A stretch of DNA of 64,000 nucleotides from Octopus sinensis (lineage: Eukaryota): positions 43,474,464-43,538,463 of the forward strand of contig NC_043011.1 in assembly GCF_006345805.1 (NCBI RefSeq). The letters run 5' to 3'. Positions 20,797-21,120 of this stretch are shown in pieces. The notes beneath the pieces are model-generated. The model was not told where the DNA came from. It did not search any database and saw only the letters and a program-made list of their open reading frames with translations. A program made the translations under genes and the position numbers. The stretch's first letter is position 1, and each line of letters begins with the position of its first letter.

Positions 20797-21120
20797 TAAC
20801 TTATAAAATAAAGGCAAAAGAAAAATTCTAATGCCAAATGTGCCGAAAATAGACAAAATTGTCAATTACCAGGACTTAGTGCTTGCTTTTCCATGGGTAT
20901 GAGTAAGTATTTCATTTATGTTTTACGTATTTATCGCTGAGGAGGGGAAAATTCTTATGAATTAACCCTGAAATTGAGACCAATACGGTAATACGGAATT
21001 TTTTAGAAATTTCTTTCGGCTTGTTTCGAGACACATAAATTATAATGGTTATTGACAATTTTGTATATTTTCGGCATATTTGGCATTAGAATTTTTCTTT
21101 TGCCCTTATTTTATAAGTTA
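20797..21120. repeat. 75-bp inverted repeat (20797-20871 / 21046-21120) enclosing an HHR
   Basis: Arms match with 4 mismatches. Confidence 0.9.
20926..20995 (+). ncRNA. Type I hammerhead ribozyme
   Basis: cgtatttatcg CTGAGGA GGGG-aa-AATTC(ttat)GAATT-aa-CCCT GAAA TTG(agac)CAA TA| cggtaatacg. Stem I is ~10 bp with one bulge; predicted cleavage after A20985. Confidence 0.8.

Follow-up and report, generated by a model that had tools for sequence, protein, structure and literature searches.

Introduction

Insertions of Penelope-like elements (PLEs) have been described as 5'-truncated partial tandems, often lying beside an inverted truncated copy, with a tail of 30-40 bp that is often present at one end only, a preference for (TA)n and the existence of non-autonomous derivatives (PMC8557442). 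According to PMC11167929, the PLE protein cuts and extends both strands of AT-rich DNA and starts at two internal RNA sites bounding the tail, which showed no strand difference in vitro; with regard to the PLE ribozyme, the same source reports the protein as needed for cutting and the ribozyme as dispensable for insertion. Metazoan retrozymes are described as 150-450-bp type I hammerhead repeats that are expressed as circles, mussels included (PMC7229834). Their derivation from PLEs has been argued (bioRxiv 10.64898/2026.07.22.740005), and the same work gives 42-44% of frog retrozyme copies as intronic, though depleted for size.

The window considered here, a stretch of 64,000 nucleotides (64 kb) of the Octopus sinensis genome, contains a hammerhead motif enclosed by two 75-bp inverted arms. 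An earlier note on this locus attributed it to a Penelope-like element with an inverted terminal structure and regarded the arms as a duplex that would clamp the intron after cleavage. The attribution is supported by the present analysis, as the tandems, inverted truncated copies, one-end tail and (TA)n of the family fit the published PLE insertions. The window copy is very probably one of hundreds of ~464-bp hammerhead repeats, likely a non-autonomous PLE (retrozyme), with a left arm that was likely made by the insertion and cages the ribozyme by chance.

Layout of the element and its inverted arms

The element, its arms and the flanking tracts are arranged as follows.

20698..20798, no strand: (TA)n tract, probably the left portion of the target site (read in the sequence)
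20797..20871, minus strand: left arm, an inverted, 5'-truncated second element copy (monomer 301-375) starting at fixed end site 1 (at least 126 exact (TA)/site-1 junctions genome-wide, control 0)
20870..21209, plus strand: direct 5'-truncated copy of the ~464-bp repeat (monomer 126-463), from genome search and alignment, overlapping the left arm by 2 nt
20903..20908, plus strand: splice-donor-like GTAAGT within the element (read in the sequence; conservation no better than that of surrounding columns)
20926..20995, plus strand: type I hammerhead motif with a predicted cut after 20985 (motif scan, fold prediction and family alignment)
21046..21120, plus strand: right arm, an internal part of the repeat like any other, with its end at site 1 (alignment to the family)
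21121..21209, plus strand: ~88-nt tail beyond the right arm, up to site 2 (at least 76 exact site-2/(TA) junctions genome-wide, control 0)
21210..21228, no strand: (TA)n tract, probably the right portion of the target site (read in the sequence)

Both of the near-perfect 75-bp arms announced by the earlier note were located, and they differ at 4 of 75 positions (5.3%); three of these changes fall in the left arm and one in the right arm, and no change is compensated. Over 31 paired loci of the family, arm divergence amounted to 138 of 2837 positions (4.9%); the window arms show the decay that is usual for the family. The inverted-repeat region folds at z -15.5, and a target-site duplication is unreadable within (TA)n. 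The arms and the hammerhead do not form the single (TA)n-bounded unit that had been proposed: the left arm does abut (TA)n, but it lies outside the repeat unit, whereas the right arm is internal to 20870-21209, and the element continues past it for ~88 nt up to (TA)n.

A second inverted structure starts ~15 bp past the element end, i.e., an inverted duplication of 156 bp whose halves are 96% alike and flank a TA microsatellite (21225-21380 and 21515-21668). It is a single-locus feature, with only weak partial matches elsewhere.

The hammerhead motif

The type I hammerhead was found where it had been placed, with its CUGAGGA (20937-20943), GAAA (from 20970) and AUA (20983-20985), so that the core CUGANGA / GAAA / NUH and three stems are all present at 20926-20995. 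Stem II (20944-20969) comprises 4 bp, an internal loop, 5 bp and a tetraloop, with a G-U closure, stem III has 4 bp, and stem I consists of 6 bp, a bulge and 4 bp and is open, as in type I. The motif scan of the window returned two hammerheads, both on the plus strand, compared with none in 40 local dinucleotide shuffles. An Rfam scan of the hammerhead region matched no hammerhead model, neither at the gathering score nor at E<=10.

Compared with the aligned family copies, the window copy has lost 1 nt from outer stem I, a private deletion that leaves a bulge where the family has an internal loop and may thereby weaken the contact between loop 1 and loop 2. The active fold is predicted to lie above the ensemble by 2.7 kcal/mol for the motif alone, and by 4.37, 4.42 and 4.44 kcal/mol for the spacer alone, with the arms and without the left arm, respectively, in energies that leave out tertiary contacts and Mg2+. 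The last three values are practically equal, and an effect of the arms on ribozyme folding was rejected. Other family copies have predicted active-fold energies similar to or worse than that of the window copy; because of this, and because tertiary contacts are omitted, the energies are no proof of an inactive ribozyme. The G-U pair closing stem II, suspected in the earlier note as a possible defect, was likewise rejected as a private inactivating change, being a common variant present in 30 of 65 family copies.

The other hammerhead of the window belongs to a different, older repeat family.

13624..13685, plus strand: other sense hammerhead (motif scan)

This family (the 13636 family) has 1237 candidates at about 80% identity, and includes copies with tandem and inverted partial pieces; the window copy of it ends at (TA)n near 13800. 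As it is a separate and older family, the presence of both sense motifs in one gene does not call for a common function.

A family of ~464-bp hammerhead repeats

A genome search with 20790-21210 yielded 2778 candidates, of which the best 40 were scored. These best 40 of 2778 included copies of 86-94% identity, and most of the best hits span just 20870-21209 at 91-94% identity, i.e., they begin after the left arm. A further 124 bp upstream is common to the copies and is joined straight to the 3' end of another copy, giving a repeat unit of ~464 bp (464-479 bp), of which 20870-21209 is the 3' part. Exact-pattern counts, which are lower bounds for the family, amounted to at least 376 matches to a 30-nt ribozyme pattern and at least 43 head-to-tail junctions, in addition to the at least 126 and 76 (TA)n junctions at sites 1 and 2; the reversed-pattern controls were all 0. 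As a ruler, the natural unit of locus L019 was used (M1-463), in which the core is at M194, the cut falls after M239, site 1 is M375 (window 21120) and site 2 is M463 (window ~21209).

For the ribozyme, 65 copies out of 90 loci were aligned, with 7 duplicate loci left out. The hammerhead core was intact in 53 of the 65. Position N7 was G in 44, C in 10, A in 9 and T in 2; stem II pair 3 was G-C in 34, A-U in 23 and G-U in 6, where a single inherited subfamily change may explain A-U; and the stem II closing pair was G-U in 30 and G-C in 28. The hammerhead thus appears to be a trait of the whole repeat family, varying as a ribozyme would.

All three sense frames of the 464-bp unit are interrupted by stops, with no RT + GIY-YIG open frame among them, and a ~60-codon open frame spans the unit junction. 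The family contains 5'-truncated partial tandems, and two motif-complete cores in tandem, 479 bp apart, were present in one of 30 tandem-junction loci (L134). The natural cut-to-cut unit has a predicted circular fold of z -5.5 against 60 shuffles. Pieces within one insertion differ by 4.9%, compared with 7.8% against other copies, and share uncommon letters at 1.9% versus 0.46%, a closeness that would be expected from one source template or subfamily. One family copy adjoins a molluscan haemocyanin exon (L009 373-1311, minus strand).

These data bear on whether the locus could be a MITE whose 75-bp terminal inverted repeats enclose a captured ribozyme. The near-perfect arms, the left one beside TA, are what such an element would offer, but the right arm lies within a longer repeat, the majority of the best hits begin downstream of the left arm, and the unit joins head to tail. 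Moreover, most copies of the family do not carry fixed terminal inverted repeats at both ends, and arm length varies from 16 to 727 bp, leaving this origin with next to no probability.

Two-sided insertions and the one-site-per-end rule

An inverted and a direct piece occurred together in 21 of 30 site-1 loci, 19 of 30 site-2 loci and 13 of 30 best-hit loci. In all, 46 distinct two-sided insertions were collected, with inverted pieces of 16 to 727 bp. The inverted piece ends at site 1 in 41 of the 46 and the direct piece at site 2 in 41 of the 46, and in none of the pairs do both ends fall at one and the same site. The two sites are ~88 nt apart, and the outer ends of the insertions adjoin (TA)n. 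Five of the 46 pairs depart from this pattern on each side, where the end either lies at another position flanked by (TA) or, in some cases, is broken by an insertion or an assembly gap; locus L069 also has irregular ends, and the mirror layout (site 2 inverted, site 1 direct) was found in 6 of 30 tandem-junction loci.

The inner ends behave differently. In 18 of the 46 pairs, the inverted piece extends beyond the 5' start of the first direct piece by at least 10 nt; in 16, it is the direct piece that extends further 5', by at least 26 nt; and in 12, both starts lie within 6 nt of each other. In L076 and L088, the direct piece is tail sequence alone, with no overlap with the inverted piece. 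The inner ends are therefore unlinked, and fold-back of one cDNA cannot give all pairs, while two separately primed cDNAs could, from the sequence layouts, produce every one of them.

Alternatively, the direct copy might have come first and the left arm later, by local inverted duplication or fold-back repair with no link to retrotransposition. Such events do occur here, as shown by the single-locus 156-bp duplication that adjoins the element, and the 12 of 46 pairs with both starts within 6 nt are what fold-back predicts. However, the left arm starts at the very position used in 41 of 46 pairs and in the 126 exact junctions, which a random duplication would not do, and a later origin of the arm is accordingly most improbable. 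An origin of the left arm in the insertion itself is preferred.

The earlier note reasoned that its reading would fail if the arms proved unrelated to the hammerhead in other copies, and this is what was found: besides the wide range of arm lengths, among 36 junction-selected two-sided insertions, 25 lacked a complete sense ribozyme, 6 had the ribozyme wholly or partly paired with its own antisense, and only 5 had it complete and caged in a loop.

The host gene, splicing and editing

The intronic sense position proposed between 18611 and 23082 is real, and the host is an adenylyl cyclase gene to which the upstream exon probably belongs as well.

18492..18611, plus strand: upstream host exon (AG/GT boundaries, 40-codon open frame), probably of the same adenylyl cyclase gene
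23082..23228, plus strand: downstream host exon, start of the adenylyl cyclase catalytic domain (Pfam PF00211, E 1.8e-7; adenylate cyclase 8, E 2e-19)

The upstream exon (18492-18611) had no Pfam match.

The clamp envisaged in the earlier note would matter to the host if the ribozyme cut the adenylyl cyclase pre-mRNA and the 75-bp duplex held the halves together, rescuing splicing, so that the insertion was tolerated or kept for this reason. Holding is plausible: binding of the halves is predicted at -82.6 kcal/mol, compared with -10.1 kcal/mol without the left arm, the core of the sense ribozyme is intact, and the right arm ends just 135 nt past the cut site, so the arms could, by this modelling, hold the cut RNA together. 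Fast intronic ribozymes can also stop splicing (as described in PMC2995048 and PMC10919898). However, these accounts of Dye 2006 and Fong 2009 report that hammerhead-cut introns were spliced about as well as intact ones and that only a fast ribozyme blocked splicing; as cut introns are spliced without any duplex (as described in PMC2995048), the need of the host for a clamp is doubtful. Nor does anything point to its being needed or selected. Several further points speak against it: the four arm mismatches are uncompensated and accumulated at a rate ordinary for the family, a caged ribozyme turns up in any case in 5 of the 36 junction-selected two-sided insertions, the predicted active fold lies 4.4 kcal/mol above the ensemble whether or not the arms are included, and no inverted partner was seen for the 13636-family copy that carries the other sense hammerhead of the window. 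A clamp that matters to the host is thus very unlikely.

Long inverted repeats are the usual substrates of ADAR. For this reason, and as Penelope of a lizard is described as heavily edited (PMC5625713), editing of the arms is plausible by analogy; it would not be special to them, since the longer hairpin (156 bp, 96%) starts ~15 bp past the element end. A broader conjecture is that two-ended PLE priming yields self-clamping ribozyme cassettes (~1/7 of two-sided insertions) whose cut RNA is held by their own arms and which would be the ones surviving in sense introns, where A-to-I editing could relax the hold of the arms and so adjust the splicing of adenylyl cyclase; this is a long shot, to be given about as little weight as the clamp itself.

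Candidate autonomous partners in the genome

The genome was searched for GIY-YIG matches, and the best 150 of 5029 candidates were scored. Intact RT + GIY-YIG frames of 781 and 775 aa are present, and the intact PLE frames have a cysteine linker of the Neptune/Nematis type, a clade assignment made by motif and without a tree. No blastn match to the repeat, and hence no autonomous partner, was found in 20 GIY-YIG loci (of the 5029 candidates). Among five longer PLE loci, the sole match was in L124 (82%), in a duplicated flank apart from the PLE end. In none of these 25 loci (of the 5029 GIY-YIG candidates) did the repeat unit serve as the pseudo-LTR of an autonomous PLE. The L124 relative was rejected in this role on two grounds, namely that (TA)n and ~370 bp of other sequence separate it from the PLE end, and that it lies within a 1.15-kb duplicated stretch and is absent from the other four of the five long loci. 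This stretch (L124 1-1153 and 5934-7091) occurs as two copies, 99% identical, that flank an intact PLE, and it carries another repeat besides the relative; it may have arisen by 3' transduction or local duplication.

The loci L123, L124 and L125 (contigs C6, C1 and C3, respectively) belong to a young autonomous PLE family with many near-identical 781-aa RT + GIY-YIG frames and with ends at (TA)n; L124 also has an upstream overlapping frame. About 100 nt before the PLE 3' end, L109, L110 and L124 show a hammerhead-like motif, recognized by eye, in which U3-A8 replaces C3-G8 and stem III is palindromic. Three more distinct hammerhead motifs of other families were seen in the 8-kb loci L123 and L126; such motifs appear to be common in this genome.

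A donor-like GTAAG before the ribozyme and an acceptor-like TAG shortly before the end site occur in the window (20903 and 21204) and also in the 3' ends of L109 and L110. The pair possibly delimits a ribozyme-containing intron of the element, common to the repeat family and the autonomous PLE. For this lead, the donor columns show no more than average conservation and the acceptor columns are biased by the search patterns.

Proposed origin and its significance

Head-to-tail junctions, (TA)n ends, two fixed sites with one per end, variable arms and ordinary decay are established in the family. Judged from its sequences, the family seems to display every structural PLE/retrozyme trait examined except a homologous partner and long arrays. 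We infer that both pieces of the window copy were inserted in one step. A PLE protein acting in trans would nick both strands of the (TA)n tract. The first nick would prime reverse transcription at site 2, giving the direct copy with its tail and a stop at monomer 126, and the second would prime at site 1, giving the inverted copy with a stop after 75 nt, whereupon the two cDNA products would be joined via the 2-nt overlap. Acting on the RNA of the element itself, the ribozyme would cut multimers to monomers, which may circularise; within the host pre-mRNA, poor folding is predicted for it, which would make the cut slow with little effect on splicing.

The hairpin is thus likely an ordinary footprint of a Penelope-type insertion rather than an intron-protecting device, and as a host device it is probably of no importance. 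The family, on the other hand, is a compact natural record of Penelope-type integration. Two sites ~88 nt apart, one per end, together with unrelated inner stops, favour priming from both target strands over fold-back alone, which concerns a step left open in the PLE papers cited here. The useful part is therefore the 88-nt tail and the one-site-per-end rule, and the 464-nt RNA and the intact candidate PLE proteins from one genome provide material for an in vitro test. As a caution, genomes rich in PLEs should be expected to yield hammerheads enclosed by inverted repeats as a by-product. Among the openly accessible papers searched, none on this family or its end rule was found; supplements may list the family under a database name.

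Comparison with known systems

L1 twin priming produces an inverted and a direct piece joined by a short overlap. The window copy shares this arrangement and the short-overlap join, whereas here the template stretches of the two pieces usually overlap and each outer end is a fixed internal site.

Intronic self-cleaving ribozymes, as described for CPEB3 (PMC10919898) and for engineered hammerheads (PMC2995048), likewise place a sense motif in the intron of a protein-coding gene. In contrast to these, the window copy is one of hundreds of decaying repeats, with no sign of conservation of the locus.

The family resembles the metazoan non-LTR retrozymes (PMC7229834; bioRxiv 10.64898/2026.07.22.740005) in that it is a low-GC repeat without coding capacity whose units, a few hundred bases long, each have a single type I hammerhead and join head to tail; its natural unit is predicted to fold well as a circle (z -5.5), and PLEs are present in the same genome. 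The unit of 464-479 bp slightly exceeds the 150-450 bp reported for them, and the repeat differs further in occurring mostly as dispersed truncated monomers or partial dimers with PLE-type inverted ends.

The canonical EN+ PLEs (Penelope/Poseidon and Neptune, as described in PMC8557442 and PMC11167929), together with the non-autonomous elements derived from them, share with the family the partial tandems, the 5' truncation, the adjacent inverted 5'-truncated copy, the one-end tail, the (TA)n targets and a type I hammerhead upstream of the end sites. As the two start sites showed no strand difference in vitro in PMC11167929, the one-per-end rule is not directly reproduced there. Unlike these PLEs, the repeat has no ORF and no homologous autonomous partner was found for it in the loci searched, and its tail of ~88 nt is longer than the published 30-40.
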